A stretch of DNA of 64,000 nt from Minisyncoccota bacterium (GCA_035994985.1 DASYKZ010000007.1:15601-79600); one strand, 5' to 3'. Positions 4,379 to 29,642 are shown, counted from the stretch's first letter. Program-made: numbers and translations. The notes: generated by a model not told the origin, from the sequence alone.

Positions 4379-7300
4379 TTAGTGACTTATCACAACAGGT
4401 GTAACCGAGTACACAGTCACTGTGCCGTTAACACTGTCAGTTATATCCGCCCGAATATATTTTGAACTTAAGGATATTCCTGATGTATCCCATACATATT
4501 CATCAGTCGGGTCATCTTCATTTACAGTGGTAATTGAAGTATGGTTGCTATTTGATGGATTAGTATCAGGGTCATAATAGAGGGCTATAGAGGCGTTTTC
4601 TTCCGGATCCTCGTCTATCCACTTGATTGTGTAACTTGCATCGGCGTTGGCGGAAACTGCCGCAGTAGGAGCCGTAAATGTGAAGGTTGGCGATGCATTG
4701 CCTGCGGTAAGCTCAAATGTTCCGCCCCACTCAGTTGCGGTTGAATCTTTACCGGCAAAGTCTCGTGCTATTACTTTAATTTTATACCCCGTACCGAGAA
4801 GGGTTCCCGGAATATCCCACGCATAGGTACGGGTACCGGAGAGAAGGCCTTCCTCGGTGCCTATCAGATACCATGTTGAATCAGCCGGTTCGTAATAATA
4901 GAATGAGGTGCTTTGGACTATGCCGGGAGAGGTTCCGATATCATCTCCAACCGTATACTGAATCAGTTCTCTTTCTTTATTCTCCATTACCTTGTCTGAT
5001 TCTCCAACTATAGAAACAGAGGTAACAGTCGGATTCGCGGTATCAGGTTTAAGGTTCGTATAGATATTTACTCCGGTAACTGCGGTATTGTAGTTGATGT
5101 ATTTGTTAGTGTATGTCTCATAGCGGAAATTTGATACGCGAGCATATGAAGATCCCCATGGCACATTACTTTGCGTGTATGTGCCATCGTCCGCATCTGA
5201 AACAGTATTAGTGCCTGTTGTCACTCCGAGAACATCAACACCCTTAACTGCTCCATCAACCGCTTTTACAGTGCCGGACGTAGTACCGGCAATATAATTG
5301 TTCGCATTAGAACTTACTTTCACCTGCGCGGGAGTAGAGAAGAAATAAATGCTGCCGCCGGAAGACGAGGTGCCTAACGTTGCTTCATAGGTAGTACCTT
5401 CTACTAAACTTCCAACGGTAACATTGGTTCCCGGATACGACACATTTGCCGCAGACCACGTGCTCGTTCCTAAAACCCGGAGCATGATGACATACTTGTT
5501 TAGGTTTGGGTCGCTCTTGGCTGGCCAGCGCCATGTTATTGCCGGAGTTCCACCGGAGGAAACGCTCTTGTATGCAACATAATACATTGGGAGCGCCGGT
5601 CTGCTTGCGGGGTCCGCAGCAAAAGTCAGAATTTCCGCATACCGTGAGTCAGGATGAATAACTTCATTCTCTCCTTCGGCAAATACTTTAAATGATACTG
5701 CTCCCAGAAAACTTCTTGATCCTGATATGCCAAGCGTAACATTGAGAGTCGAATTGGCGTTAACAACGATGCTGTTGGCCGCAAGGTCCACAGTCGCATA
5801 ACCATAATCGTCAGTAATGATATGTAATTTCCCACTATCAATTGCAGTATTGCCATTATTTACCAAAACAATTCTTATATTTGTCGTACCGCCGGTCGTA
5901 AGCGTTGTGAGCGGCACAAGGTCAGTAATTGCGAGCTGACCTGAATCAGTAGAAACCGAAAGTGCTTTAACGACTTTCGCTGTGGTGTATAGGTCGCTGT
6001 CAAAACTGCCGTTACCTGCCTGCTCGTCTTCAAAGTACTCTACTGTATCAAGCTGGTATGTTGGCACTTCTCCTGAAGCTTTTATGGCGTGATATGCCAA
6101 TGCCGTATTAAGTGTATTGTTTTCCCACGTACCGTCTGAAAGCTGGGCAGTAGTGAGGGCAGCGACTGCTGGATTGAGTGTATCGTCAATTGCAATCGGT
6201 CCCATTGTACGATGCCTCCATAAAAGTAATGCTTCAACTACTTCAGCTGTGGTTGCAAAAGGGCTTGTTCCAAAGTTTGAGATACTCCAACCATCATCAA
6301 ATCGCTTTGTATTAATTAAATAGTGAAGCGCTAAAGACTGGGTTTTGTTTATTGATGGACCTGGGTCTTCATACTCTGCAGTAGAAAGAGCTTGGATAGC
6401 TTGAGTAGTAGTTATCGGATCGGCTTTATAGCTTGAATTGAAAATAAAACCTCCTGTATCTTCATCAAGTCCTCTCACGAGTGCTTCAACTGTTGATCCA
6501 GTATCTTCTGCCGCTACTTCCAAAATTTTAATCTGTTTAGCAAGATAATCATTGTTTTCTGTAACATAAGAAGATATCCATGCAATACCATTGTCAACTT
6601 CTGTACCTGTTACATTTTGCGACTGCAGAGCATCCAGCACCGCAGAAGTAGTGACAAACTGGGTGGAACCACTGCCCCATGATCCGTCAGCATTTTGCTC
6701 ACCCAGAAGATAATTAATCGCGTCCTCGCTTACTGATGCCGCATCCGCGAAAGCGCTTGAAGGAGATACCCAACTGACAATTTCACTAAAAGTATTTTTG
6801 ATTGCATTTTTCACTTTTTGGAAAATAGTTTCTTCAACTTTTTCTGCAGGATCTACGGTCTCCATATCTAGCACCTTCACTTTTAGTTCTTCCGGCTGCT
6901 CTTCAAAAGCGATAGCCTTTGAAGCATCCAATGTCTGCATGCTATTAACATTTAAAATTTCATTTGCCGGTTCAATACGGCCCTGTGCGTCTAAATCAAG
7001 ATAGTCTTTCGGGAGTTGCCTTATATCAACAAGCTTTTTAGCTATGGAAAATCTTAAGCCCTCATTCATTTCCGCCTTCCTTTCTATTTTGGTAGATGGC
7101 CACATGAATATAGTCCGATCAATGGAAGCTTTATCACTACGATATGCTTTTATTAATTCTTTTATATCCGAAGATATGGCAAGCGTACTCAGGGCTTCAT
7201 CAGAATTAAGCGCGAGAGCTTTGCCGTGTATGTTTACTTTTTGCTCCCAATCTACTCTGGAAATATCGGGTATGATACTTGATCCGGTATCCACCTTGGG

Positions 7301-7450
7301 GATTTGAATTAAAGATTCAAGCGGTACGAACTGCGAGGGTATCATTTGAGCTTTAGCAGAATAAGGAATAACAGAAGGAAATAGAATGCTGGCTAATAAA
7401 AATACTGATAGTATTTTTGAGAATATATTTGTTTTCATATTTTTATGCAT
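4379..7450 (-). CDS. large secreted surface protein: signal peptide, prenyltransferase/squalene-cyclase-like alpha/alpha-toroid repeats, CARDB-like and Fn3/Ig-like beta domains
   Basis: N-terminal signal peptide MHKNMKTNIFSKILSVFLLASILFPSVIPYSAKAQ. Repeated Q/xxDGSW-type units (LGEQNADGSWGSG, RFDDGWSISNFG, QLSDGTWENNTL, QAGNGSFDSDLY). CARDB-like 'NIRIVLVNNGNTAIDSGKLHI'. Fn3-like 'PAITWRWPAKSDPNLNKYVIMLRV…GTTYEATLGT'. No CxEQ thioester motif. Confidence 0.6.
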   Translation of the reverse strand: MHKNMKTNIFSKILSVFLLASILFPSVIPYSAKAQMIPSQFVPLESLIQIPKVDTGSSIIPDISRVDWEQKVNIHGKALALNSDEALSTLAISSDIKELIKAYRSDKASIDRTIFMWPSTKIERKAEMNEGLRFSIAKKLVDIRQLPKDYLDLDAQGRIEPANEILNVNSMQTLDASKAIAFEEQPEELKVKVLDMETVDPAEKVEETIFQKVKNAIKNTFSEIVSWVSPSSAFADAASVSEDAINYLLGEQNADGSWGSGSTQFVTTSAVLDALQSQNVTGTEVDNGIAWISSYVTENNDYLAKQIKILEVAAEDTGSTVEALVRGLDEDTGGFIFNSSYKADPITTTQAIQALSTAEYEDPGPSINKTQSLALHYLINTKRFDDGWSISNFGTSPFATTAEVVEALLLWRHRTMGPIAIDDTLNPAVAALTTAQLSDGTWENNTLNTALAYHAIKASGEVPTYQLDTVEYFEDEQAGNGSFDSDLYTTAKVVKALSVSTDSGQLAITDLVPLTTLTTGGTTNIRIVLVNNGNTAIDSGKLHIITDDYGYATVDLAANSIVVNANSTLNVTLGISGSRSFLGAVSFKVFAEGENEVIHPDSRYAEILTFAADPASRPALPMYYVAYKSVSSGGTPAITWRWPAKSDPNLNKYVIMLRVLGTSTWSAANVSYPGTNVTVGSLVEGTTYEATLGTSSSGGSIYFFSTPAQVKVSSNANNYIAGTTSGTVKAVDGAVKGVDVLGVTTGTNTVSDADDGTYTQSNVPWGSSYARVSNFRYETYTNKYINYNTAVTGVNIYTNLKPDTANPTVTSVSIVGESDKVMENKERELIQYTVGDDIGTSPGIVQSTSFYYYEPADSTWYLIGTEEGLLSGTRTYAWDIPGTLLGTGYKIKVIARDFAGKDSTATEWGGTFELTAGNASPTFTFTAPTAAVSANADASYTIKWIDEDPEENASIALYYDPDTNPSNSNHTSITTVNEDDPTDEYVWDTSGISLSSKYIRADITDSVNGTVTVYSVTPVVISH

Positions 7451-7465
7451 AATTATTATTAATTT

Positions 7466-8257
7466 TTAACTTTTAAAATATTCATTAAAACTATCAGTCC
7501 AAATGCTGCAATTTTTCTTGTTTTCAAGAATCTTGACTATGCCTCCTGTCGGATTAATTTCTGCAACTTGGCAATCGTTCTCATTTTCAGTATCACTATT
7601 CCATCCAAAACGAACGCTTTTTATAGGAACAAGAGTATTTCCTTCAAGCTTATATTGAGTTTTCGTATTTGAATCGGATCCGTGATTTGTTAGATAAATT
7701 CGACTAGCTTTGTACTCAATAGTATCGAATTCGACCGAATTATCTGGATAACCTTCTAGCTTTATATTTTCTAAACTATTTCCTTCCATTCGAAGTATTT
7801 CGAAGGAGGAGTTATTACTTCCCGTAGTTTGCAATTTTACAAACAACTCTTCAAGTCCATCATTAGTAATGTCTTTTTTAGAAAAGTTATATTTTACTTG
7901 AATACCATCTTCAGGGGATATAGATACACCAACTTCTTTAAGCAGTTTAATTTTTGGACTTAATGAGTAAAACCGATATATTTCCGCTTCGTTTTTGTAG
8001 TTTTCTACAACCAAATATAAGATATTGGCACCAATTCTAATTTCTGTTGCATAGTATTCGGTAGCATTTATAAGATAATGATTGTCGTCTTTTTCTTGAA
8101 TAGTAGAATTTGGGAAAATTTCAGAAAGAAACGACGGCTTTTCTTTCTTTTCTTTGCTGAAACTAGAGAATATTACTACAAAAGCTATCACTATGAGAAG
8201 TACTAAAATGCTAATAATATTTCTTCCTGTTATTAAGTTTTTTTTCTTAAATATCAT
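7466..8257 (-). CDS. hypothetical N-terminally membrane-anchored exported protein
   Basis: 263 aa, one N-terminal TM (ISILVLLIVIAFVVIFSSF). Sits between the two large secreted-protein genes with 15-nt and 4-nt gaps. Confidence 0.5.
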   Translation of the reverse strand: MIFKKKNLITGRNIISILVLLIVIAFVVIFSSFSKEKKEKPSFLSEIFPNSTIQEKDDNHYLINATEYYATEIRIGANILYLVVENYKNEAEIYRFYSLSPKIKLLKEVGVSISPEDGIQVKYNFSKKDITNDGLEELFVKLQTTGSNNSSFEILRMEGNSLENIKLEGYPDNSVEFDTIEYKASRIYLTNHGSDSNTKTQYKLEGNTLVPIKSVRFGWNSDTENENDCQVAEINPTGGIVKILENKKNCSIWTDSFNEYFKS

Positions 8258-8261
8258 AGTT

Positions 8262-11200
8262 TTAATATGTTAAGGTTTTACCGTAAGGAATATCTTGGTC
8301 CGAAGCCCAGCAATATTCCAAAGAATCATTGGTCTTCGCACCTATTGCCTTCATTGCTTCTGGAGAAGCTCCCGCAACTTTATTTGTTGTAATATGAGGA
8401 CCATAATCTAATATTCCAGATAAAACTGCTTTTCCTGTTACGGAATTTTTAATCCAAACTTTTTTACCAAAATACCATTTCTGCTCCGTTAACCTTTCTG
8501 GCATATCAAAATCTGTATACTTCCATCTCATATTCACATAGAATTTTTCATGGTCATTAGAATTTGCAGGTTGCGCAAATGCACCATAACGAATAGACAT
8601 ATTCCAGTATTTGCCAGTCTTTGGGTCTATCCATGGATTATTTATATTACTTGATTGATTTCCTAAATCAATCAAAAATTGAGATGTTGTCGGATGACTA
8701 TGTATATCGTCCTGTTTATTGTATTGAATTTGGCCACCATGTCGTGTTTGATAAGTTCCAGAATTTTTATCTATAAAGAGTGGCAAGTGCATTTCTTCTG
8801 CTATTGTACCAGAAGTAGCGGGTAAGCTTCTTCCCTCAAGAGTTGTTGTACATACTACGGAAGTAGGGTTGGAACCTTTTACAATATTTACATCAACTGA
8901 GGAACTAGTACCGTAGCCCGAATGCAAAGTTATGGTCTGTATGGGAAAGGTTGTCGTATTAATATCTCCTTCTTCATCCCAATCGTGAAAAATCGAATCA
9001 TAACTCGCACTCCAGTGAATATCTTCACCTCGTTTTACAGTAGCATTATTCGTAGGTGAATTAATCGTAGCGGTAAGTCCGGGTAATGTATGAGCTCGCC
9101 AGAAATTGGACCAGCCTGTTGGGAATTGTTCTACAGTATATCCACCGTTAAGCCCTTCTCCAATCGCGTAAGTTCCATCGCCGACATCATAGTCTAAGGC
9201 AATATAAAAGAGGCCTTCCCAGTCTCCGTAAGTAATTGAGTCCGAGGGTGTATAAATTATTTTTCCATCGCCAATGGCATCATGAAAAACGGTTTTCATT
9301 CCAGGAGAGATAGATAGAGAATCAATGTCTCCCTCGTTTGCTTCTGTTATTTTCTCGAGAGTTATCCCTGGAAATTCTCCGTCTGCGACTAATTTTAATC
9401 CTTTTACCGTTGCTACTGATTCTATGTCAAAATTATCCTCAAAGATATCTGATTCATCTTGAGATCCTTGAAGCCCGAACAAAGCCATAAATTCTTTTCT
9501 ATTAGAATATATATCATCCCCGAACCTACTAAAATATCGAACCAGCGAAGAAGAGTCAATTCGCAGTCCTTTCCATTCAAACGAATATGGCTGTCCACTG
9601 CTGTATGTTACTTCTACGCCATTAGAAATCGCTGCGCTTGTGGCACGATTAGTAAAATCTCCTCCTGTGATACCGGCAAGTTCACGATGATTTTTCTGTA
9701 AGCGGCCTAAATAATCTACTCCTGTGCGATATAGCTTTTGGCTTTGCATAAATGTACCGCTATCCGTATCTTCATCTGGACGTAGTATGCTTGGGACAAT
9801 ACGGTCAGTATTCAAAGCAACTCCGTCCGTAGTTCCAGTTACAATGCTTTTTTCTAGAGTTTCTGCAAGTTCAGAATCCACTGAATCACCTATGTCTCGA
9901 ATCGGCACGTTAAATTCCATTTTGTATTTATGCACTTTCCCAAGAATATCGCTTGCTGTTCCGGTCGCAACAATATCGCCCCCAACTCTTATTTTAGGCT
10001 TCACATCTGCTAGAGTAAGAGGGACGACATCGTAAATAGTATCAAATCCGTCAATTATAGTCTGGTCTTCCGGGGTTGCCGCTTCATATGTAACTAGAAT
10101 TTCGCGATTAGCCAAGTCTGAAATAAAAGCAGTATAGGTAAGAACTTCTGTACTTGTTGTATCAGTTACCGTAAAGTCTATTGTATGACGCAGAGAAGTT
10201 GGGATATAGTCATAGGTGTTAAGATCAGTCGAAATTTCATACGGCAACGACCCTGGGACAGTTTCAAGCTCCATATTTGCACCAAACTTACGCATCAAGA
10301 CTTCTTGATATGTATAGCTATCATTGTCGGCAGGAGGATTAGCTATAAGCCAGTCCTCAACTTTACCTTGAAAGACCTCAAGAGGTTCCTGTGTTGCATA
10401 ATCTCCATTCAAATAGTCATCAAAAAAATCTTCTATGTCAAAACCGTCACTATTCATTTCATCAACTGCATCTACAACCTGAGAATATAAATAAGAATTG
10501 AAAGTAGGGTCCATGGCTACCCATTGAGACTCGCCACCATCATTTAAATCTGCGCCACGGCTATAGCCGTAAGGCATATATGCTTCAACATATGTATGTT
10601 CCAGCACAAAAAATACAGGTTCGTCATTTTGGGTATACATGATATAAGGTATATCCTCTAAAGAGAGAATTTCAGCAGCTCTTATAGGTGAATCTACTCC
10701 AAGCAGTCCTGTGACTGTGGATATTTCAACTTTCACATCAGCGTGGCGATAGCGGGCAGGAATATCACTATACCTAAGCATGGCAACAAGCAGGGACGAT
10801 TTATCCATGTCATTTCCGGCAAGTTCAACGAGAGTTCCATCTGATCCTTTCTTTGATCCGTAATATGGTATGTATTCAATTTCGTTTCGTAAAAAATTCA
10901 ATATTTTCAAAGGATCATTGGATAATTCGTCCGCTTTGTCTTGAATGGCCTGTGAAAATTTTATCTCATTTCCTTCCGCAATATAGTCATCCGGGTCGTT
11001 GCTGGCATCTGCATATATTTTTTCTCCTCCAAATAGCCAAGAGATTATGCCGCCTTTTTCTTTAGTTTTATCAAAGTCAGAGTTATAGAAAGTTCCATCA
11101 AGTAGGAAATTTTTAACTTTCTGAAGAAAGTTACCATGTTCTTTGGCCTGTTCAAATTTTTTCTCATAATCGTCTGCTGGAGCGGTATTTATCTTACCGT

Positions 11201-11777
11201 CAAAATTCTCCACTTTAAAGGGCTCACGCTCCATAAGCTTCTTTGCTTCATCTGCTTCTCTAGCTTCTTTTGTGTTACCTGTAATGAAATCAAATATTTT
11301 CTTTATTATGCCGTCCTTAGGATTTTCCGTTTGCTGTTTTTCAAAAGCATCTAGACGTTCAATAGCGGTTTCAGGGAGTTTATTATCAATTAAATGTTGC
11401 CTGACTTTAGCAAGTTGCTCTTCTACGGACAAAGAATTATCCTTTTTAAATTTTGTTTTTAAAAGCGGTACCTCTTCAGCAGGCGCAACAGCTTCAGCTG
11501 GTGCTTCAGTTGCTTGCTCTTGCTCTAACGCAGGTGCTGTAGTTTCTTCCTGTGGTGAAGGTAAAGTAGAATCCTCCTCAACTGGTGAATTCGCATTATC
11601 TCCAGAAACTGGCTCTTCCTGCGCCGGAAATTCTGTTTGTGGGACAGCATTCTCTTGAGCAAACACTCGTACGACAGGCATCACTGGAGATAAGACGAAT
11701 GAAAGAAATAACAATATAGCTAGTAATCTTTTAGTAACCTTCAAACAACGTACAAACTTTATATATGAAGTTGGCAT
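8262..11777 (-). CDS. large secreted protein with transglutaminase-like (papain-fold) core domain; nucleophile position appears substituted (Cys→Asp)
   Basis: Signal peptide, acidic Pro/Glu/Ala-rich linker, then 'ELAGNDMDKSSLLVAMLRYSDIPARYRHADV … EHTYVEAYMP … WVAMDPTFN'. This matches the TGase-like G-x-C-x-D…IPAR…H…D pattern except that the Cys is replaced. Confidence 0.6.
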   Translation of the reverse strand: MPTSYIKFVRCLKVTKRLLAILLFLSFVLSPVMPVVRVFAQENAVPQTEFPAQEEPVSGDNANSPVEEDSTLPSPQEETTAPALEQEQATEAPAEAVAPAEEVPLLKTKFKKDNSLSVEEQLAKVRQHLIDNKLPETAIERLDAFEKQQTENPKDGIIKKIFDFITGNTKEAREADEAKKLMEREPFKVENFDGKINTAPADDYEKKFEQAKEHGNFLQKVKNFLLDGTFYNSDFDKTKEKGGIISWLFGGEKIYADASNDPDDYIAEGNEIKFSQAIQDKADELSNDPLKILNFLRNEIEYIPYYGSKKGSDGTLVELAGNDMDKSSLLVAMLRYSDIPARYRHADVKVEISTVTGLLGVDSPIRAAEILSLEDIPYIMYTQNDEPVFFVLEHTYVEAYMPYGYSRGADLNDGGESQWVAMDPTFNSYLYSQVVDAVDEMNSDGFDIEDFFDDYLNGDYATQEPLEVFQGKVEDWLIANPPADNDSYTYQEVLMRKFGANMELETVPGSLPYEISTDLNTYDYIPTSLRHTIDFTVTDTTSTEVLTYTAFISDLANREILVTYEAATPEDQTIIDGFDTIYDVVPLTLADVKPKIRVGGDIVATGTASDILGKVHKYKMEFNVPIRDIGDSVDSELAETLEKSIVTGTTDGVALNTDRIVPSILRPDEDTDSGTFMQSQKLYRTGVDYLGRLQKNHRELAGITGGDFTNRATSAAISNGVEVTYSSGQPYSFEWKGLRIDSSSLVRYFSRFGDDIYSNRKEFMALFGLQGSQDESDIFEDNFDIESVATVKGLKLVADGEFPGITLEKITEANEGDIDSLSISPGMKTVFHDAIGDGKIIYTPSDSITYGDWEGLFYIALDYDVGDGTYAIGEGLNGGYTVEQFPTGWSNFWRAHTLPGLTATINSPTNNATVKRGEDIHWSASYDSIFHDWDEEGDINTTTFPIQTITLHSGYGTSSSVDVNIVKGSNPTSVVCTTTLEGRSLPATSGTIAEEMHLPLFIDKNSGTYQTRHGGQIQYNKQDDIHSHPTTSQFLIDLGNQSSNINNPWIDPKTGKYWNMSIRYGAFAQPANSNDHEKFYVNMRWKYTDFDMPERLTEQKWYFGKKVWIKNSVTGKAVLSGILDYGPHITTNKVAGASPEAMKAIGAKTNDSLEYCWASDQDIPYGKTLTY

Positions 11778-11861: not shown

Positions 11862-12620
11862 TTATCTATATTTCTTGATTTTATCTTGATTAATTTCTAC
11901 GCAATCGGACGTGCTACTATCTTCCGCTGTGGTCCAGCTATCTATGCGCTCTTCTATGCTGTAAATTTTCCATTCTCCCTCTATCCTCTTGAAAGTAAAT
12001 TGATCGATATTATCACCCTCGCCTTTGCATCCGTTTCCCGCAGCACCTAGATATGATTGCCATCCTCGTCTGCCATAGACAAGCATTGTGTTTTCATCTA
12101 AGAGCTTGCGACCTAGCGCTTCTCCCCCAATACCTGCTCCGGTTGGCCACGGAAACTGAAATATCCATGCAGGGGAATTTTTATCAAAAAATGCCAGGCG
12201 AAAAGCTTCATAATGCGGACTATTCCAATCGTCAGATGGTGGTGGAACAACAAAATACGGAGCAAAAAATTCTGTAAATTCGTGCTTGCCTGACCTATCG
12301 AATATTGAGTATTCGGAAGTACTGCCATAATAGAGGGTCAGGTCATAGTATGTGGCGAGGATTACGTCAATTGCGGTATCATCTTTGGGAACAAATTTCT
12401 TAAGCTCTTCCGCTGCTTTTTGATAAGAAACATCTGCCGAATGGTCAACGGCTTGTTTCACTTTAAGATTTATCTTGCCGTCATAGGTCGAGATTTCTTT
12501 CGAGTATAAGTCTTTATACTCTCTGTCTCTTTTATTTAAGAATAAAAAAAGAGATATACCTATTAAAAGAAGTACGAGAAAAAATACTGAGATAATTTTC
12601 TTATTTTTTAAGTGTTGCAT
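11862..12620 (-). CDS. hypothetical membrane-anchored protein
   Basis: 252 aa with a single N-terminal TM (IISVFFLVLLLIGISLFLFL). Confidence 0.5.
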   Translation of the reverse strand: MQHLKNKKIISVFFLVLLLIGISLFLFLNKRDREYKDLYSKEISTYDGKINLKVKQAVDHSADVSYQKAAEELKKFVPKDDTAIDVILATYYDLTLYYGSTSEYSIFDRSGKHEFTEFFAPYFVVPPPSDDWNSPHYEAFRLAFFDKNSPAWIFQFPWPTGAGIGGEALGRKLLDENTMLVYGRRGWQSYLGAAGNGCKGEGDNIDQFTFKRIEGEWKIYSIEERIDSWTTAEDSSTSDCVEINQDKIKKYR

Positions 12621-12716
12621 TTAGTTTATTATAACACTTTCTATATAAATAAATTGATATCAATAGTTTTCACATAGCTCTAAATAACAATCACAATATA
12701 TGTTAATATTAAAAAT

Positions 12717-13826
12717 ATGAAAAAGCTAAAGGTTATATTTGATAATAACTCCCATATAGCCGGCAAAGGAAAGCCTATTTTAGAAATTTTTTCTAATAAT
12801 GTTATTAATCTTAAAAAATTTATATCCAAAAATAATATAAATGAAAGAGTTTCTAGTTGTTTTACTGAAATAATAAAAGAAGAAGGTATTAAAGAACTTC
12901 AAAGACGAGTAATCGCTAGATATCACGATGTTAAAAAATCCGCTGAAGCAATTAAAGGTATCGTTCCAGAAGATTTTATTTCTGAACTTAATGAAGGAGA
13001 ATTAAAAAATAAAATTGAAGAACAATATGATTTAAAATTAAAAGAAAATAATATAGAGATTATACCTCTACCTTCCGAAGCAAAAATATTAGAACTCTCA
13101 GAACGAGCACTTGATTATATACCTCCTTTTGAGATTGGGGATAAAGGTTTTAAGGATACTTTAATTTGGTTGTCTATTCTTGAAGATGCAGAAAAAAATA
13201 AAGACTTTGATTATATTTTTGTAACTGGAGATAAAATCTTTAATGATAGAGTCAAGAATGAGTTCAAGGCAAAACTAGGAAAAAATATTCATATAATTTT
13301 ACCAGAACTTATTGAAGAATCTTTGGATGAAGTTTTGGATTTAGGAATCGGATTAGAAAAAGCTAGAGAAGAAGCAACAAAAGCTTTGAAATTAGATGAG
13401 TCTCTCCAAAGGAAACTAGAGAAGGTTGCATTAGAAGAGCTTGCTCAACCAACCAACGCTCTTTCTCTTATCTTTTATAGTGGTGGGGAAAATAATAAAT
13501 GGGAGTCTAAGGTAGTTAATTTAATTTTCAAAGACGCAAATATAAGTATTAAAAATAAAACCTCAGCAGATACTTTTGAGATAGAGGCAACTATATCTTT
13601 TAAACCTAAATATGAAAAATCTGAAAATGAAGCGGATCAATCTCTTTACGGGGCTACAAGGTCTAATATTACAGTCATGTCTATGTATAACGGAGATAGA
13701 ATCTATTATCCAATTTCATTGAAAAAAACTTTCGACCTTACATATAAAAAAGGCAAAGGCTTTGATATTACGGGTTCTGGTAAAATGTACCCCGATTTTC
13801 CATTCACCATAAATAATTTCTACTAG
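12717..13826 (+). CDS. hypothetical protein with N-terminal PIN-like nuclease-type domain
   Basis: 'VIFDNNSH', 'GDKGFKDTLIWLSILE' and 'YIFVTGDKIFNDRV' show the spacing of conserved PIN acidic residues. AT-rich, Lys-rich; a lone + strand gene in the accessory islet. Confidence 0.45.
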   Translation: MKKLKVIFDNNSHIAGKGKPILEIFSNNVINLKKFISKNNINERVSSCFTEIIKEEGIKELQRRVIARYHDVKKSAEAIKGIVPEDFISELNEGELKNKIEEQYDLKLKENNIEIIPLPSEAKILELSERALDYIPPFEIGDKGFKDTLIWLSILEDAEKNKDFDYIFVTGDKIFNDRVKNEFKAKLGKNIHIILPELIEESLDEVLDLGIGLEKAREEATKALKLDESLQRKLEKVALEELAQPTNALSLIFYSGGENNKWESKVVNLIFKDANISIKNKTSADTFEIEATISFKPKYEKSENEADQSLYGATRSNITVMSMYNGDRIYYPISLKKTFDLTYKKGKGFDITGSGKMYPDFPFTINNFY

Positions 13827-13893
13827 ACTTAATTAAAATGCCAACACTCTAGCAAAATTAGCCAGTTTTGCTACTATTAAAATCTTCTAAAGA

Positions 13894-14565
13894 TTATATT
13901 CTCTTTTTTATCTTACGAGGGTTAGCTTTTTTATATCTACGAGCTTCTTCTTTATTGTCGGCTTCCCAAACTTTATCTCTAAATGATGATAATTGACTAG
14001 CTATTGCGTAATTTTGTCTTATAAATTTCAGTATTATACTAGGAGTAATTTTTATCTTTCTAAAATTCATCCCTAACCCTTCTCTGTTTTCTACACTTTT
14101 GTATCTCACAAAACCAGCTTCATCTAAACTCTGCCAGTTGGCATGAGCAATAATATTTCTAAACTCTGATAATTCAACAAGTTTTAAATAAATTAGCTTT
14201 ATTTCACTAAGTAACTTAGATTGCTTTTTTCCTGTTAAACAATATTTTATAAAAGCAAAATAATCATCCCTTAATAAATCAATCTTCTGTCTAAATTCTA
14301 AATATTTTATTATTCTATAACCAGGTTCATATGCTCTATCACTAATAGCAGTAGCTAAATCCACATCAACTCTGTCTTCTAATGCTGAAAAAGAAATAAC
14401 TAATCTCCCTATTGATCTAGCATATTTTTCTTCAACTTCTTCTATCACTTCGAATTCTCCATTAGTATCTTCTTCATCGTTAGTTCCATACTGACCCATA
14501 TAAGCCGCTTTAATTTCTAGTTTTATTTTTTCCTTTGGTTTTCTCATAACTGGAAATGCTTTCAA
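13894..14565 (-). CDS. hypothetical protein with HEPN-like R-x4-H motif (Abi-like)
   Basis: 223 aa; 'LSEFRNIIAHANWQ' (RNxxxH) sits in a predicted helical context. 10 nt downstream of its partner gene. Confidence 0.4.
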   Translation of the reverse strand: MKAFPVMRKPKEKIKLEIKAAYMGQYGTNDEEDTNGEFEVIEEVEEKYARSIGRLVISFSALEDRVDVDLATAISDRAYEPGYRIIKYLEFRQKIDLLRDDYFAFIKYCLTGKKQSKLLSEIKLIYLKLVELSEFRNIIAHANWQSLDEAGFVRYKSVENREGLGMNFRKIKITPSIILKFIRQNYAIASQLSSFRDKVWEADNKEEARRYKKANPRKIKKRI

Positions 14566-14575
14566 TTAAAGATAA

Positions 14576-15586
14576 TTATGACAAATTATCAAAAAGCCCC
14601 GATTGGTCATCTGGAATAATTTCTTGCTGTTTTTTTACTCTTTCTTTGTGAAAAACAATATCTTCGTTATAACTTTCTACTTCCCTAATGTAAATACTCC
14701 GATTTAACAGTATTCCACCTTTTAAATCACCAGTAATATCAAAAATTACTTTCATGTTATCGCCACTAGCAAATGTTCGTTCTCTTTTATAAGTCTGATC
14801 CTTAAAATCAGGGTCTTGCATATAAAAATCAATGTCTTCACCATTGGTTAAAATTGTTACACTTTCTGAAACTATATTTTCTCCAAAATATGTCCCCCTC
14901 CAAGATATGCCTCTGCCTTCTCTTTTCTGTTTAACTACTGGAGATATTAATTCTATAATGCCATTGGCATTTTCGTAAGAATATTTTTTGTCTAATATCG
15001 GTTCTATATATTTAGGAAAATCCTCTTTTACTATCTTTTTTGAAGAAATAATTTCCCCTTTCGAATCTTTTAAGAGAGTTTCATTATCTTTAATCATATT
15101 ATCTCTTTGCAGGGTGTCGTAAATATTGTTTTTTTTCTTTTTTAAATTTAAGTTTCCACATACCTCAGCTAATTTTTCATCAGGAATATTTTCTATATCA
15201 TAATCTCCCTTGAGTGCTTCCATATTTTGCTTTAATTCTAGGCATTTTGCTGTATCGTCTACAACCCACATATTCTTCTCGTGTAAATGCTCTTCGTGGG
15301 AATCCTTATAATTCAAAACAACAAAGACTAAACCAGCGACAGTAGCAGCAGTTCCTAGCGATACCCCTATTTTATTTTTCTTAATAAATTTTATTATATC
15401 TTTATACGATCCTGGCTCAGAAGGAAGTAAGAAAATTTCAAACTCTTCGTTTGGATATAAAACTTTTGACATTTCTTGGAGCATAGCTACCAAGTCTTCT
15501 GAACATTTATTCCGTGTATTGGCACGGATATAATGATCTGGTACTCCAAAATGGGTTTCTATGGTTATGAAATTTTCAGCTGTCAT
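14576..15586 (-). CDS. hypothetical protein with one internal TM segment; operon partner of the HEPN-like gene
   Basis: 336 aa with a TM helix GVSLGTAATVAGLVFVVL; no recognisable catalytic motif. Confidence 0.45.
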   Translation of the reverse strand: MTAENFITIETHFGVPDHYIRANTRNKCSEDLVAMLQEMSKVLYPNEEFEIFLLPSEPGSYKDIIKFIKKNKIGVSLGTAATVAGLVFVVLNYKDSHEEHLHEKNMWVVDDTAKCLELKQNMEALKGDYDIENIPDEKLAEVCGNLNLKKKKNNIYDTLQRDNMIKDNETLLKDSKGEIISSKKIVKEDFPKYIEPILDKKYSYENANGIIELISPVVKQKREGRGISWRGTYFGENIVSESVTILTNGEDIDFYMQDPDFKDQTYKRERTFASGDNMKVIFDITGDLKGGILLNRSIYIREVESYNEDIVFHKERVKKQQEIIPDDQSGLFDNLS

Positions 15587-15800
15587 AGTTATAATTATTT
15601 TCTATAATCTGAATAATTTTTTCTTGTAACAAGATTTTTAGTTGGAATCTTTTTGTTCCTATTCCTTAATTTCTACCATAAAATTTCTAGTTTTACAAGA
15701 CTAACCACGATATTTGCAAAATGAAATTGGGACTATGATAAAATGTATATAGTTGATAGAAATATTAACCAGTAGAGAGTAATGTAATAGCGCGTTCTAG

Positions 15801-15853
15801 AACCTTTTCAAGAGCGCACAACTACACTGTGCTCTACTGAAAAGGTTTTTTGT
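15801..15853 (+). terminator. strong intrinsic-terminator-like hairpin (17-18 bp stem + T-run)
   Basis: aaccttttcaagagcgcaca / tgtgctctactgaaaaggtt followed by ttttttg. A promoter-like TTGCAA (15714-15719) with a -10-like element lies ~100 nt upstream. Confidence 0.55.
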
Positions 15854-16315
15854 TATCTTGCCTCATTGTTAGGAATGAGGGTTATACTGGAGGGCTAGGC
15901 TACGTTACCAACACTGGGCCTCCTCTGGATGCGATATAAACAAGTGTTGGCTGACGAATAGCTAAGCGTCTATTATCTTAGCCAAGGGAGTCTGATTGTA
16001 AAGAGATTTATTAGCAGACATCCTTGTAGGTCAGTGTCTCATAGTGGATGTAGTCAATCGACAAGCCACAAAGGGAAAAAGGAGTACATGTATGTGCTAG
16101 AAAGTCCGTTTTGACGGACACATACAGAGACAGATTCAATCAGGAGTAATTCCCTGAAAAAGCTAGATTGATAAATCACTTCCGAGAGAAAACGGAATCA
16201 CGTGATGATACTGACAAGTAGGAAACGAACGTTATCTTTGATATGGTCAAAATATTTAATAAAAACACGCTTAACCTTTCAACAGGAGTTCCCAGTATAG
16301 GAGTATCAAGATGAA

Positions 16316-16576
16316 ATGGAAACTTTGGAAATTGAGCTTTCAGAACATACGAAAGCAGATTACGATTACCAAACAACTGTTGCTATGGTTATTTCTGTAG
16401 CACGTAGAGCAAAAGAAATATTTGAAAAAAGTTCTGACACGGCCGGAAAAAGAGCATTTTTAAATTCTTTGCTTCAGAACCCTACCATAAATGGAAAAAA
16501 GCTAGATTTTACAATAGCTTCTCCATATAATCTTGTACTAGAATTAGCTGATCACCCTAACTGGCTCCGGGGGTAG
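16316..16576 (+). CDS. small hypothetical ORF (86 aa) ending inside the 3' end of tRNA-Asn on the opposite strand; possibly an element remnant or non-coding
   Basis: ORF with K/E-rich composition. An in-frame stop lies immediately upstream, and the ORF overlaps the tRNA by 15 nt. Confidence 0.2.
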   Translation: METLEIELSEHTKADYDYQTTVAMVISVARRAKEIFEKSSDTAGKRAFLNSLLQNPTINGKKLDFTIASPYNLVLELADHPNWLRG

Positions 16577-16636
16577 GGATCGAACCTACGACCAATCGCT
16601 TAACAGGCGACCGCTCTACCACTGAGCTACCCCGGA
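16562..16636 (-). tRNA. tRNA-Asn (anticodon GTT), CCA encoded
   Basis: The reverse complement tccggggtagctcagtggtagagcggtcgcctgttaagcgattggtcgtaggttcgatccctacccccggagcca folds as a cloverleaf with anticodon loop cuGUUaa. Confidence 0.85.
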
Positions 16637-16738: not shown

Positions 16739-16811
16739 GGGCCGTTAGCTCATCTGGTAGAGCACCTCATTTGCAATGAGGGGGTGGCAGGTTCGAGTCC
16801 TGTACGGTCCA
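16739..16811 (+). tRNA. tRNA-Ala (anticodon TGC), with the G3:U70 identity pair
   Basis: gggccgttagctcatctggtagagcacctcatttgcaatgaggg…ggttcgagtcctgtacggtcca; CCA not encoded. Confidence 0.9.
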
Positions 16812-18394: not shown

Positions 18395-18401
18395 ATGTTT
18401 G

Positions 18402-18784
18402 GTCTTGTGCCTATAAGCCGAATTTTGTCTTCCCTTGCGGGATAATGGCAATTTGTCTAGGCCCTAAATTACTTGAGGGCTCAAGCGATTCTCCCCGCAC
18501 ATAACTTTACACAACTTTATATACCTTATTAAACTAGAGATGTAGAGTTATGTGCGGGGCGCGATCTTGCACAGAGGTAAGGATTTAGCCGTTTCACCCT
18601 AGTGTTACCACTAGATTATTCCCGAAGGAACCCTAGCCTTTCGGCCTTGGCGTCTCTGTTCGCACCTATATATTGCTATACACGGGTATTACCCGCTACC
18701 ATTCCCAGTCCCTTCTGGAACTTCGCTGTGTTCGGACTTTCCTCTCTGAAATAAATCAGAGTAGCCATCCAGCATAAGACTAAT
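18402..18784 (-). ncRNA. rnpB: RNase P RNA (bacterial type A-like)
   Basis: The minus strand contains GAGGAAAGUCCG (P4 5'), the P3 hairpin cucugauuuauuucagag, AGGGUGAAACGG, GCUUGAGCC, the P18 GNRA hairpin ucccgcaaggga, and ACAAAAUUCGGCUUAUA (P4 3'). P1 pairing is agucuuaugc/gcacaagac. There is a long AU-rich insertion helix (ccccgcacauaacu…aguuaugugcgggg). Confidence 0.8.
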
Positions 18785-21853: not shown

Positions 21854-22104
21854 GGGACCATGAATTTATGCAGGCCCCCAGCATCGCGAATTGTTTCATC
21901 GCCAGGCTGTAAATATAAATGGTATGTATTTGCTAATATTACTTCCGCGCCAAGCTCACTTACCTGTTCGGGTGTTAAAGCCTTTACAGTTGCTTTCGTG
22001 CCGACAGGCACGAAAGCGGGAGTATATATAACTCCGTAAGGAGTTTCAAGTACTCCTGCCCTACCTAAGCTATTTTGTAATTTTTTTTCAATTTTGAAGT
22101 CCAT
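21850..22104 (-). CDS. tgt: queuine tRNA-ribosyltransferase, N-terminal fragment (84 aa), ending in an ATGA stop/start overlap with the C-terminal piece
   Basis: 'GRAGVLETPYGVIYTPAFVPVGTKATVKALTPEQ…ANTYHLYLQPG…GGLHKFMVP*'. The next conserved TGT segment (ITDSGGFQ) continues in the -1 frame. Confidence 0.7.
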   Translation of the reverse strand: MDFKIEKKLQNSLGRAGVLETPYGVIYTPAFVPVGTKATVKALTPEQVSELGAEVILANTYHLYLQPGDETIRDAGGLHKFMVP

Positions 22105-22178
22105 TTTATAAATGTGGATAACTTTGACTTTTATATCAAAATTTGCTATATTTAAAGTGATCGAAAGATCACAAACTT

Positions 22179-22209
22179 TACTGCTTAGGGGCTCCGCAAG
22201 GAGTCCCTT
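22179..22209. terminator. terminator-like GC hairpin (ggggctcc-gcaa-ggagtccc) with a downstream T-run on + and a second hairpin (gtgatcgaaagatcac) at 22148-22163
   Basis: Lies between the NYN gene stop and the tgt start; orientation ambiguous. Confidence 0.35.
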
Positions 22210-22221
22210 TGGCTTTTTATA

Positions 22222-22983
22222 TTATAGGGCCTTTATTTTATCCTTTATACTTTGAGATAAGTCTCTTGGCCAGCAAATAAACTCCTTAATCTTTTTAATA
22301 TCAAACACAAAGGTTCCCGTTTCATCTAATTCAGTAGAGACTTTACCGGAAGTTGCAAAAATTACTGCATTTTTCCCATCACTTCTTATCTGATTTACGG
22401 GACCCGCGAAATCACTATCTACACTCCATAATATGTAGTTATTGATTCCATCATTGTCAAAATCTCTGAGCATATCTCTACCCATTTCAACATCAAAATT
22501 ACACTTTTGTTCTTCTATCTCAAAAATTCCTTGCTTATTAAAGATCTCTAGTTTTCCATTTAGATATTCTATAGTTTCTATAGCTAGCTTTGATAAAAGA
22601 CTTTTCTTTATAAAATTTTTCAATATACTTGGAGAATTTTTAGGAATACTGGACATATCAATAGGTATCCTCATTAATTTTACTGGTTTAGTAGTAACAC
22701 TATAACCCATAGCTTCCAACTCTGGAATACAATCTTCAGATTGTTGATTACCTTCTAAGGTTCCAGTGTAAATTTTAACAGAATTTATTGTATCAAAAGA
22801 ATCAAATAACTGTTTCATTCTTTTTAAATCTATGTTCCACTTTAGTTTGTCTTGCCAATGTATGACATTAGACCAATCAATATAAATGTTTGTAGGACCA
22901 TCAAAAATTTTCTCCAAATCTGATATAACTTTGGGAAATAATTTTGCTAACTTTTCAATTCTGTCTGTTTTTGGTATAAACAT
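22222..22983 (-). CDS. NYN/LabA-like (PIN-fold) nuclease domain protein
   Basis: 'NIYIDWSNVIHW' (beta1 Asp), 'CNFDVEMGRDML' and 'YILWSVDSDFAGPVNQIRSDGKNAVIFAT' fit the NYN pattern (D…D-x-D…SGD-DF…G-x-V). Confidence 0.6.
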   Translation of the reverse strand: MFIPKTDRIEKLAKLFPKVISDLEKIFDGPTNIYIDWSNVIHWQDKLKWNIDLKRMKQLFDSFDTINSVKIYTGTLEGNQQSEDCIPELEAMGYSVTTKPVKLMRIPIDMSSIPKNSPSILKNFIKKSLLSKLAIETIEYLNGKLEIFNKQGIFEIEEQKCNFDVEMGRDMLRDFDNDGINNYILWSVDSDFAGPVNQIRSDGKNAVIFATSGKVSTELDETGTFVFDIKKIKEFICWPRDLSQSIKDKIKAL

Positions 22984-22986
22984 AAA

Positions 22987-23568
22987 TTATTCTTTCGTCT
23001 CATTAATTTCTTCTACTAAAACTTCTTCTTTGCAGTATTTTTCTGAAAACTCCTTTAATTCAGTTTTAATGTCTTTGAGTTCACCATCCATTATTGCTTC
23101 CGTAGTTTCTGGAGTTTTAGGGATAAGTAATTTCACCCTCCTAAATTCAAATGTATGGTAAGAATTATTTACATTTATATCTTCCTCATTTACTACATTA
23201 GTCTTTCCTTGATTGTTATTAAACGTTTTTACCATCTTTTTTGTACGTGTAACAATTTTTGGAGACCAGTTTGCCATTTTTGCTGCATCTGACCCATACT
23301 TCTCGTATTCATTGATAACTTTTATTACTCGAGATTTATAAGTAGCCAAAGAACCGGCACTAAATTTCCCTTTTGCAAAAATGCTGTTTGAAATTTGTCC
23401 AATATTTTTCTTAACTTCATTTATAGACTTAACTTCTTCCTCATTTAATTCTTCCTCAAATAACTTCAGGGCTGTCTTAAGAGCAGACCCTGTATTTTCA
23501 GGGTATTTGCGACTCTTTACAGCCCTGTTAATAAAATCATATAAATTTTTAAAATTTTGTTTTTCCAT
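22987..23568 (-). CDS. hypothetical protein, operon partner upstream of the NYN gene (3-nt gap)
   Basis: 193 aa, K/E-rich, no recognisable motif. Confidence 0.5.
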   Translation of the reverse strand: MEKQNFKNLYDFINRAVKSRKYPENTGSALKTALKLFEEELNEEEVKSINEVKKNIGQISNSIFAKGKFSAGSLATYKSRVIKVINEYEKYGSDAAKMANWSPKIVTRTKKMVKTFNNNQGKTNVVNEEDINVNNSYHTFEFRRVKLLIPKTPETTEAIMDGELKDIKTELKEFSEKYCKEEVLVEEINETKE

Positions 23569-23837
23569 AGTTTTATTTTTATAATTACTAATGAATATAT
23601 TCTATTATAGCTCAATATAGAAGTCAAGAGTAGTTATAAATTGATGCTGTGGAAAACTTTATAATATCTTTATAAATAAGGGTATTTATGTCAGATTTGA
23701 TTTCAAGAAAATGTTCGTTAACGTTTCAATAAATTATTAATTTATTGAAAAATATCTACTCTCTCTGTAAACATCTTTTCTTTGGCTTATATTTTATAAT
23801 ATATAATAGTTATGAGCTATATGTTTAGAGGATAGTT

Positions 23838-24656
23838 TTAGTTTGCCACTTCCACAAATTTAAGTTGCTGGATATTTACCGGAGAAACAAGCAGGGCTTT
23901 CTGCGAAGAGTCGCGAGGGTCAGAAATTACCGTTTCCACTACTCCTATGACATACGGAGTAATGCCGGGCAGCACTGCCTGGTCCCCTTTCCACAACACC
24001 AAATCTCTCGGCACTATCATTTCAAAATTTCCCCCGCCCCTGCCTGCAACTTCTGTAAAAATATTGCCGGCCTGTCCCGCTTGCGGAGAAAGCACTACCT
24101 CTGTAGCTTCCCCACTATTGGAAAATAAAATTACTTTTGAAGATTTTGGGTATGCTTCGGCTATCCGGCCAATGGGTAGATTGCCAAAAGCAAACACTCT
24201 GTCGCCCATTTTTATCCCTTTGTCTACTCCGATGTCAATCAATAAAGTATCGTAAGGGCTTTGGTTTGGCTTTGCCAATATCGCGCCCAATGTCATTTTT
24301 ACCTGCTCATTCTTGCGGCCTAAAATTTCCTTCAGGCCCGCATTCTCTGCTACGACAGAAGCATAATTTGCCCTGTCGGCGCTGTCGGCATCCCTCTCAG
24401 ATTTCAAGTCAGCATTTTCCTTAGAAAGAGAGCTTTTAAAAGAAAAGTAACTGGCGAAACTTGTGAGTTTTCTGCCGGCACCATTTCCGGAACTAAGTAC
24501 AGGACGGAAAACTGCCGTACTGACATAGCCGAGCCCGCTAAAAACTCCAGCGCGGAAATAAAATAATATGATAAAAACCAGGACGGCACCGATGATTTTT
24601 AAATTCTTGTTCCTTTTATTTTTTTTATCGAGGAGGTAATTCATTTTGATTACCAA
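23838..24656 (-). CDS. mreC: rod shape-determining protein MreC
   Basis: N-terminal TM, coiled-coil and C-terminal beta domain (…GNLPIGRIAEAY…VSPVNIQQLKFVEV). Immediately downstream of mreB with a 32-nt overlap. Confidence 0.65.
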   Translation of the reverse strand: MVIKMNYLLDKKNKRNKNLKIIGAVLVFIILFYFRAGVFSGLGYVSTAVFRPVLSSGNGAGRKLTSFASYFSFKSSLSKENADLKSERDADSADRANYASVVAENAGLKEILGRKNEQVKMTLGAILAKPNQSPYDTLLIDIGVDKGIKMGDRVFAFGNLPIGRIAEAYPKSSKVILFSNSGEATEVVLSPQAGQAGNIFTEVAGRGGGNFEMIVPRDLVLWKGDQAVLPGITPYVIGVVETVISDPRDSSQKALLVSPVNIQQLKFVEVAN

Positions 24657-29566: not shown

Positions 29567-29642
29567 GCCGGAATAGCTCAGTTGGTAGAGCAACACTTTT
29601 GTAAAGTGAAGGTCGTGGGTTCGAATCCCTCTTCCGGCTCCA
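29567..29642 (+). tRNA. tRNA-Thr (anticodon TGT), CCA encoded
   Basis: gccggaatagctcagttggtagagcaacacttttgtaaagtgaaggtcgtgggttcgaatccctcttccggctcca; anticodon loop uuUGUaa. Confidence 0.8.

Follow-up and report, generated by a model that had tools for sequence, protein, structure and literature searches.

Results and Discussion

Architecture of the effector gene

The window analysed here, a stretch of 64,000 nucleotides from a Minisyncoccota bacterium (GCA_035994985.1, DASYKZ010000007.1:15601-79600), carries on its minus strand a gene at 8262..11777 that heads a three-gene cluster and that we refer to as the effector gene. A reading made earlier from the sequence alone (the sequence-only reading) had placed here a secreted transglutaminase (TGase)-like protein of 1171 amino acids (aa) with Asp in the position of the nucleophile Cys. 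Translation confirms the ATG-initiated open reading frame and its length, and all of the strings quoted in that reading (GNDMDK, LLVAMLR, IPARY, EHTYVEAY and WVAMDPT) are present in the product. The Cys-to-Asp replacement is family-wide, the C-terminal tip of the protein is swapped at a sharp junction, the downstream gene changes with the tip, and the third gene of the cluster is conserved. The sequence-only reading missed this wider architecture, in which the TGase domain is one part of a body of ~780 residues with an exchangeable tip and a partner. The gene and its segments, all on the minus strand, are as follows.

8262..11777, minus: effector gene, whole; ATG start, 1171 codons by translation
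11658..11777, minus: probable Sec signal peptide, aa 1-40; K/R-rich start, hydrophobic LLAILLFLSFVLSPVMPVV, then VFA/QE; read by eye
11463..11657, minus: acidic Glu/Ala/Pro-rich low-complexity linker, aa 41-105; E 14, A 11 and P 10 of 65 residues
10959..11462, minus: conserved N-terminal part of the body, aa 106-273; no Pfam match, the last ~24 residues covered by the structural model
10506..10958, minus: TGase-like (papain-fold) domain with Asp at the nucleophile position, aa 274-424; profile match
9138..10505, minus: remainder of the body, aa 425-880; within the modelled region
8853..9137, minus: immunoglobulin (Ig)-like beta-sandwich spacer, aa 881-975; weak Big_7 match, beta strands in an AlphaFold2 (AF2) model at a predicted local distance difference test (pLDDT) score of 60-69
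8265..8852, minus: exchangeable C-terminal effector domain of the "query type", aa 976-1171; from tail clustering

In the public JGI gene call (P0001, 1134 aa) the start is set 37 codons after the ATG, so that 11667-11777 is removed and the signal peptide is lost. The longer, 1171-aa frame agrees with the N-terminal pattern of the homologs, and the pattern of the signal segment is kept in the consensus of 30 of them; the hydrophobic N-terminus and VFA/QE, judged by eye, agree with the signal peptide that had been claimed. The acidic Pro/Ala/Glu-rich linker is likewise where the sequence-only reading had it, as the composition count confirms, and is little conserved (15% identity among homologs). 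Along the protein as a whole, conservation is poor in the signal peptide and linker, high throughout the body (aa ~100-880) and variable over the last ~290 residues.

The TGase-like domain carries Asp in the Cys column

Almost the whole of the Transglut_core profile (PF01841) aligns with aa 274-424, at 34.3 bits (E = 3e-8); as this score lies above the curated cutoff of 23, the TGase similarity is significant, in line with the signature recognised earlier. The positions that correspond to the catalytic triad are listed below in translated coordinates.

10803..10817, minus: G321-N322-D323-M324-D325, carrying the family hallmark N-D-x-D, with D323 in the Cys column
10809-10811, minus: D323, the Cys-column residue
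10596..10598, minus: H394, His column of the former triad
10509..10511, minus: D423, third triad column

When a profile of 30 homologs was aligned with 3isr, a TGase-like putative cysteine protease, aGNDmDka was matched to AGVCRDFA, and the distance from the Cys-column position to the Pro of IPAR, read from the sequences, is 17 residues without a gap in the effector and 3isr alike. The fold of aa 250-900 was modelled with AF2 from 93 sequences at high confidence (mean pLDDT 94.1, predicted template modelling score 0.92). In this model the core helix (74-87 of the model) begins with D323, H394 lies within the long strand 137-153 and D423 is just past strand 168-173; as modelled, this order of helix start, strand and strand end is the papain/TGase arrangement. 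The profile alignment, the IPAR spacing and the model thus all put D323 in the place of the nucleophile Cys, and the column is not filled by a Cys from elsewhere in the protein. In active PF01841 enzymes the core helix has a Cys at its N-terminal end (G-x-C-x-D), which the effector lacks. The model upholds the papain-like order of D323, H394 and D423 at pLDDT 94, while its bearing on the active site is limited to secondary-structure placement.

The N-D-x-D site, not the triad, is what the family conserves

To place the replacement in its family, a profile of aa 250-900 was compared with 1.84 billion cluster representatives and matched 7,014 proteins at E <= 1e-3, of which 1,740 also passed E <= 1e-30. 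From the 7,014 matches the best 150 were taken, almost all of which span the full 650 positions; 137 of these 150 cover the site. Among these 137 representatives the Cys column holds Asp in 133, Ala in three, Gly in one and Cys in none, and the flanking residues are invariant: the N322 column, immediately before, is Asn in 137/137 and the D325 column, two positions on, is Asp in 137/137. The 30 close homologs give the same picture, with Asp in the nucleophile column and G-N-D-x-D kept in 30/30, so that no homolog in either set has a Cys at this position.

The remainder of the triad behaves differently. The His column (H394) holds His in 75 of the 137 representatives, Arg in 43, Trp in 13 and other residues in six; the third column (D423) holds Asp in 121, Glu in seven and other residues in nine. 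His is absent from three of the 30 close homologs, two of which have also lost the third acidic residue, and GNDxD is intact in all. The D-H-D arrangement proposed in the sequence-only reading therefore stands for this protein, in which D323, H394 and D423 are all present, but not as a general property: because the His column varies across the family, a general D-H-D triad is unlikely, and it is not what the family conserves. Residues 300-349, which comprise the YYGSKKG loop, the start of the N-D-x-D helix, R335 and R342, form the densest conserved block of the whole body. The NDxD site is not decaying, as judged from this pattern, and we infer that it is retained for ligand or cation binding, or as a structural Asp-His/Arg pair, and not for thiol catalysis.

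A sub-branch of 12 of the 137 representatives (P0116, P0122, P0136, P0139, P0141, P0147, P0152, P0158, P0162, P0164, P0171 and P0176) reads C-N-D-x-D, with a Cys two residues before the Asp in place of Gly. Its His column is Trp in 10/12 members, His being retained in P0116 and P0171. The idea of a compensating Cys elsewhere was considered and set aside, as this upstream Cys is confined to the 12 representatives and does not apply to the window protein, which has Gly at that position.

A conserved body with distant relatives in many phyla

The TGase domain makes up about a quarter of a conserved body of ~650-780 aa. All Patescibacteria relatives compared are 54-67% identical to the window protein over the body, and relatives at 45-62% identity all belong to the Patescibacteria (CPR bacteria), which assigns the window to a genome of that group. 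More distant members with the same body occur in Pseudomonadota, Verrucomicrobiota, Nitrospirota, Desulfobacterota, Bacillota, Myxococcota and Chloroflexota, those of the Bacillota including the cultured Ruminococcus flavefaciens, Ruminiclostridium hungatei and Paenibacillus soyae. Among 25 long members of this distant group, four carry RHS_repeat together with DUF6531 and 11 carry Big_1 domains, the latter in a place equivalent to that of the Ig-like spacer (aa 881-975); others terminate in EndoU nuclease, lipase/esterase, phosphodiesterase or M12 peptidase domains. No RHS match was obtained in Pfam scans of the effector and its 29 close homologs.

Most of the ~650-residue body has no solved structural relative. 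The structural matches of the body model include the catalytically inactive TGase-fold proteins 4.2 and XPC/Rad4; DARPin matches of the full protein among solved structures (E 0.18 to 0.84) were dismissed as chance.

A second set of near-invariant polar residues lies in the remainder of the body (aa 425-880; 9138-10505, minus), comprising D571 (100%), D741, S772 and E775 (98% each), E780 and K792. It falls partly inside the conserved GLQASQDESDIFE stretch and could mark another functional site.

The tip is exchanged at a sharp junction

A Pfam scan of all close members identified SLT in seven, Amidase_2 in two, and in one each RNAse_A_bac (a CdiA-type RNase A; E = 1.5e-11), Ribonuclease (barnase-type) and PT-TG (Pre-toxin TG domain). 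An all-against-all comparison of the tails separated them into distinct classes, namely the query type (the window protein, P0002, P0003, L016 and L018), a large SLT-like class, Amidase_2 and singletons, giving at least six tip classes on bodies 54-67% identical. The junction is sharp: the Ig-like spacer (aa ~881-975) is 15-51% identical to that of the window protein, and past aa ~975 identity is 59-67% for tips of the same type versus 11-16% for all others, the tip being ~200 aa in length. P0004 pairs the most similar body (67%) with an unrelated tip (11%), which shows that tips have moved between bodies. Within the Patescibacteria clade, about 24 of 27 tips belong to the query type or are directed at the wall. 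Six proteins of ~300 aa (P0031-P0036) that had been candidates for independent stand-alone tips have N-termini matching the end of the body, GEGLNGGYTVEQW, and are therefore truncated gene calls of the same family.

The downstream gene follows the tip and the third gene does not

Two genes follow the effector on the same strand and one precedes it.

7466..8257, minus: 263-aa membrane-anchored partner, probable immunity protein or inhibitor; changes with the tip type; FG-GAP/XAC2610-like D-x-T/N-x-D-G-x-x-E motif
4379..7450, minus: 1023-aa exported second giant, the third gene; squalene-cyclase-like repeats, FN3-like region
11862-12620, minus: 252-aa membrane-anchored upstream protein; no family match

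The effector stop and the partner start are 4 bp apart, and 15 bp separate the partner from the second giant. No terminator-like site lies between the genes of the cluster on the coding strand, and promoter and terminator scans across the cluster gave nothing above the shuffled expectation; PADLOC defence-system models matched none of the four genes scanned. The order effector, small gene, second giant exported protein is the same in every related locus examined, so the three-gene secreted cluster of the sequence-only reading is both real and syntenic. The second giant is 38-55% identical across loci whatever the tip type; it matches TIGR01787 at E = 1e-7, far below the cutoff of that model, and in other loci the corresponding proteins can exceed 2900 aa and contain Ig_Rha78A_N, CBM_4_9 and DUF2341 domains.

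The small gene, in comparison, tracks the tip. Partners of query-type tips (window, L002 and L016) are homologous, at 259-270 aa, in 3/3 loci (E = 2e-60 and 4e-24), those of SLT-type tips (L006, L008 and L021) form in 3/3 loci one mutually homologous family different from that of the query type, and a partner unique to its locus accompanies each of the RNase A, PT-TG and barnase-like tips. Partners of wall-directed tips are N-terminally membrane-anchored and those of nuclease tips have no transmembrane segment, as read from the sequences, a division in keeping with the compartment in which each would have to work. The partner that adjoins the barnase-like tip (L009) matches SMI1_KNR4/SUKH-1 at 26.5 bits versus a Pfam cutoff of 25.4. 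SUKH is a recognised immunity family of polymorphic toxins (Zhang et al. 2012, PMC3482391).

An Amidase_2-tipped locus, L007, has three additional genes that resemble query- and SLT-type partners.

L007 5104-5856, 10562-11266 and 11253-12005: extra partner-like genes

Judged by this resemblance they look like an orphan immunity-gene array; no spare cassette of this kind was recognised in the window. Genes upstream of the effector differ between loci, and since the upstream gene of L007 resembles a query-type partner, the upstream position may hold spare partner genes.

The XAC2610 family model (NF047539) is covered over its whole length in three different partners, that of the window and two others, at 15.2, 14.7 and 21.8 bits, with a cutoff of 35. 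The window partner gives a weak match to PliI (PF16743, E = 0.16) and has in common with the SLT-type partners a calcium-type D-x-D-G-x-x-E motif; a likewise sub-threshold match to FG-GAP_3 also occurs among the partners. A search of the partner profile against solved structures returned only FG-GAP-type motifs at E above 0.05 and did not recover 4QTQ. Such matches are consistent with the role of a wall-hydrolase inhibitor.

Relatives of the window's tip occur in type IV secretion operons

Matches of the window's query-type tip to a xylosidase (E = 0.29) and to Toxin-JAB1/DUF2625 (E above 0.04) were dismissed as chance. A profile search with the tip recovered distant relatives (E 2e-9 to 2e-4), all small membrane-anchored proteins, which share with it an invariant E-x-H, a Glu, NMRW, the GP pair of K-K-V-x-I-x-N...GP, and GASPE. 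Pfam gave no significant match for these stand-alone relatives, and none to SLT, CHAP, LytM or NlpC/P60. Two of them, P0186 and P0182, lie on independent contigs directly after a VirB4-type ATPase in two type IV secretion system (T4SS) operons, which also hold pilins, TrbL, PrgI and TraC-like genes; in one, an Amidase_3/NlpC-P60 protein is found two genes beyond the tip relative.

L090 8001-8645 and L091 8001-8789: tip-homologous membrane-anchored proteins after a VirB4-like ATPase; no Pfam match; each then followed by a conserved 151-aa gene

In the pCF10 operon of Enterococcus, the position after the VirB4-type ATPase is that of the wall hydrolase PrgK. As the T4SS relatives occupy the equivalent position, the query-type tip probably acts on the cell wall, an assignment that is unproven and drawn from association.

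A probable polymorphic toxin-type effector built on a TGase body that is probably inactive

We consider it probable, from the sequence features described above, that the gene encodes a Sec-exported effector of the polymorphic toxin type, in which a conserved inactive-TGase body carries an exchangeable tip and is accompanied by a tip-linked, immunity-like partner. Two features by which polymorphic toxins are recognised are found here: a conserved N-terminal/central region is joined to unrelated exchangeable C-terminal toxin domains, and the downstream, immunity-type gene varies with the toxin domain save at the two Amidase_2 loci. The loss of C, H or D residues within the N-terminal region of an exported toxin, by which the inactive-transglutaminase class is recognised, is also found, the domain here beginning at aa 274; an RHS array after the TGase, a further mark of that class, is lacking in the effector and its close homologs.

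In the mechanism that we propose, the tip would be the active effector and the 263-aa downstream protein its cognate immunity protein or inhibitor, which would shield the producer's own wall. The TGase-like domain would not be a thiol enzyme; it is probably a binding or anchoring module that holds the effector on an envelope peptide, the role put forward for this class by Zhang et al. (2012). Within it, D323 probably pairs with the His or Arg at 394, replacing the thiolate-imidazolium pair, or aids ligand or cation binding. The window's tip would most likely act on peptidoglycan, because most Patescibacteria tips are wall hydrolases, because its partner, like those of SLT and amidase tips, is anchored in the membrane outside the cytoplasm, and because the only other relatives of the tip occur in T4SS operons after the VirB4-type ATPase. 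Of the options raised in the sequence-only reading, a pseudo-enzyme or binding module is thus best supported, and a non-canonical D-H-D hydrolase as a general mechanism is not.

Several observations weigh against this interpretation. N-D-x-D and its polar neighbours (Y305, S308, K310, T315, R335, R342 and E398) are conserved beyond what a passive relic would need. That most Patescibacteria tips are wall hydrolases is also compatible with housekeeping or with attachment to a host, as opposed to antagonism. The partners of the two Amidase_2-tipped loci have no detectable mutual similarity, and the similarity of the partners to XAC2610/PliI lies under every curated cutoff. For the query-type tip itself nothing significant was found in Pfam (fragments, E up to 10) or in two profile searches of solved structures, and its AF2 model, from eight sequences, reaches a pLDDT of only 39.8. 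An hhalign comparison of the tip with E. coli RlpA gave 22 aligned residues (V-x-I-x-N-x-x-n-G-k...GP) at 21% probability; the RlpA/double-psi beta-barrel identity is a lead prompted by visual motif resemblance and is unproven.

Because N-D-x-D and its polar surroundings are so strongly conserved, a non-thiol catalytic activity is conceivable, and the alternative that the domain is an active non-canonical hydrolase or transferase, with Asp replacing the thiol and acting for instance on wall stem peptides or in tip release, has to be weighed. It would account for N322 and D325 being invariant and D323 97% conserved among the 137 representatives, and for the site being the most conserved stretch of the body, with many conserved polar residues; in other folds, that of the haloalkane dehalogenases for one, an Asp serves as the nucleophile of an Asp-His-Asp triad. 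However, no common triad is maintained, since 43 of the 137 have Arg and 13 have Trp in the His column and some have lost the third residue as well, and we know of no enzyme of the papain/TGase fold with an Asp nucleophile. Inactive TGase-fold proteins (4.2 and XPC/Rad4) are among the structural matches, and such domains are read as inactive by Zhang et al. (2012, PMC3482391). We therefore regard an active Asp enzyme as unlikely.

A related and more far-reaching proposal, improbable to a similar degree, is that N-D-x-D is a working site of a new kind, either a carboxylate isopeptidase or a cation-dependent stem-peptide receptor, present in well over 1,000 toxin bodies across phyla and, separately, that the tip and its T4SS relatives constitute an unrecognised family of wall-breaching enzymes, which would serve secretion machines as well as Patescibacteria effectors.

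The cluster could also be a housekeeping or host-contact surface machine, in which an autolysin or wall-remodelling enzyme, perhaps one breaching the host wall in episymbiosis, would be served by the small partner as regulator and by the second giant protein as scaffold. The high proportion of wall-directed or query-type tips in the Patescibacteria clade would suit such a role, as would the three-gene order with a giant surface protein kept in all loci, the membrane anchors of the partners of wall-directed and query-type tips, and the tip relatives in T4SS operons, where wall hydrolases play a constructive role. Since the same body bears RNase tips with partners that lack a transmembrane segment, SUKH among them, and a nuclease tip is sensible only if delivered into another cell, since tips exchanged between similar bodies and the spare partner genes of L007 are hallmarks of conflict systems, and since the distant relatives are RHS toxins, we hold this explanation to be slightly less likely still than an active Asp enzyme.

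Comparison with known systems

The polymorphic toxin-type reading has a precedent. Zhang, de Souza, Anantharaman, Iyer and Aravind (2012, Biol Direct 7:18, PMC3482391) describe an inactive TGase at the N-terminus of Sec-dependent polymorphic toxins, located after a signal peptide or transmembrane helix, with at least one of C/H/D lost, and list it under the Sec/type II secretion system-dependent toxins. This architecture, including the inactive transglutaminase, is thus already on record, and the Cys-to-Asp replacement is not peculiar to this gene and does not represent a novel kind of feature. The likeness to that class extends to export by a signal peptide (a probable one, read by eye, here), a TGase fold with triad loss, a neighbouring bacterial Ig-type domain, C-terminal toxin domains of diverse kinds and a downstream gene of the immunity type. 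In contrast to the class as described there, the effector and the Patescibacteria clade have no RHS array and are short (~1200 aa); the effector TGase does not directly follow the signal peptide, being preceded by the acidic linker and ~170 conserved residues; it is a quarter of a conserved unit of ~650-780 aa whose tips are mostly peptidoglycan hydrolases; and the loci have a conserved second giant gene after the immunity gene.

From the cysteine peptidases of PF01841, such as 3isr of Cytophaga hutchinsonii, the pseudomurein endoisopeptidases PeiW/PeiP, TgpA and LapG, the effector family differs in having Asp for Cys and often Arg or Trp for His. Erythrocyte protein 4.2, Rad4/XPC and yeast Cyk3 have likewise lost the thiol and kept the TGase fold for binding or scaffolding, which is the probable role here; those proteins are eukaryotic and intracellular. 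To our knowledge, the former active site is generally not the best-conserved part of 4.2, Rad4/XPC and Cyk3, unlike in the effector family.

XAC2610, whose topology is like that of PliI and Tsi1, serves as immunity protein to a peptidoglycan-hydrolase effector (PMC10933484). In the X-Tfe(XAC2609)/X-Tfi(XAC2610) pair of Xanthomonas citri, as would be the case here if the tip is a wall hydrolase, a wall-hydrolase effector is directly followed by an exported inhibitor; that pair differs in being delivered by a T4SS via the XVIPCD signal, while the effector described here would be exported by Sec on a TGase-like body and the partner matches are sub-threshold. The stand-alone tip relatives resemble the PrgK/VirB1-type T4SS wall hydrolases in being membrane-anchored and directly after the VirB4-type ATPase, and differ from them in having no sequence match to SLT, CHAP, LytM or NlpC/P60.

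No description of a Patescibacteria branch of the class was found in the literature searched, of which the journal coverage is incomplete. New here are that branch, with its wall-hydrolase tips and conserved companion giant, the size of the body and its pattern of conservation, including the invariant N-D-x-D, and the link of the tip to a T4SS component. Patescibacteria live attached to other microbes, and how the walls of their partners are opened or damaged is largely unknown; the effector family, as a modular exported carrier for wall hydrolases or nucleases with matching protective proteins, is a concrete candidate for a factor in interaction with hosts or in competition. The domain known from polymorphic toxins as the "inactive transglutaminase" belongs to a much larger body of ~650 residues (1,740 cluster representatives at E <= 1e-30), no part of which is more strongly constrained than the former active site, and the unassigned tip ties these effectors to an uncharacterised T4SS component. 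These results do not overturn existing ideas; they refine a class known since 2012.

Elsewhere in the window

Upstream of the effector cluster, a low-GC stretch at 12000-16000 (GC 0.31-0.32 versus about 0.40-0.45 elsewhere) may be an inserted island, and the composition profile has a second dip, to 0.313, at 22001-24000. The features recorded in and beyond the first of these are as follows.

12717-13826, plus: PIN_12-domain gene in the low-GC stretch
13894-14565 and 14576-15586, both minus: two unannotated open reading frames in the low-GC stretch
16565-16636, minus, and 16739-16811, plus: two tRNA genes adjoining the low-GC stretch
18398-18780, minus: bacterial RNase P class A RNA, 111 bits versus a gathering score of 100
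29567-29639, plus: further tRNA gene

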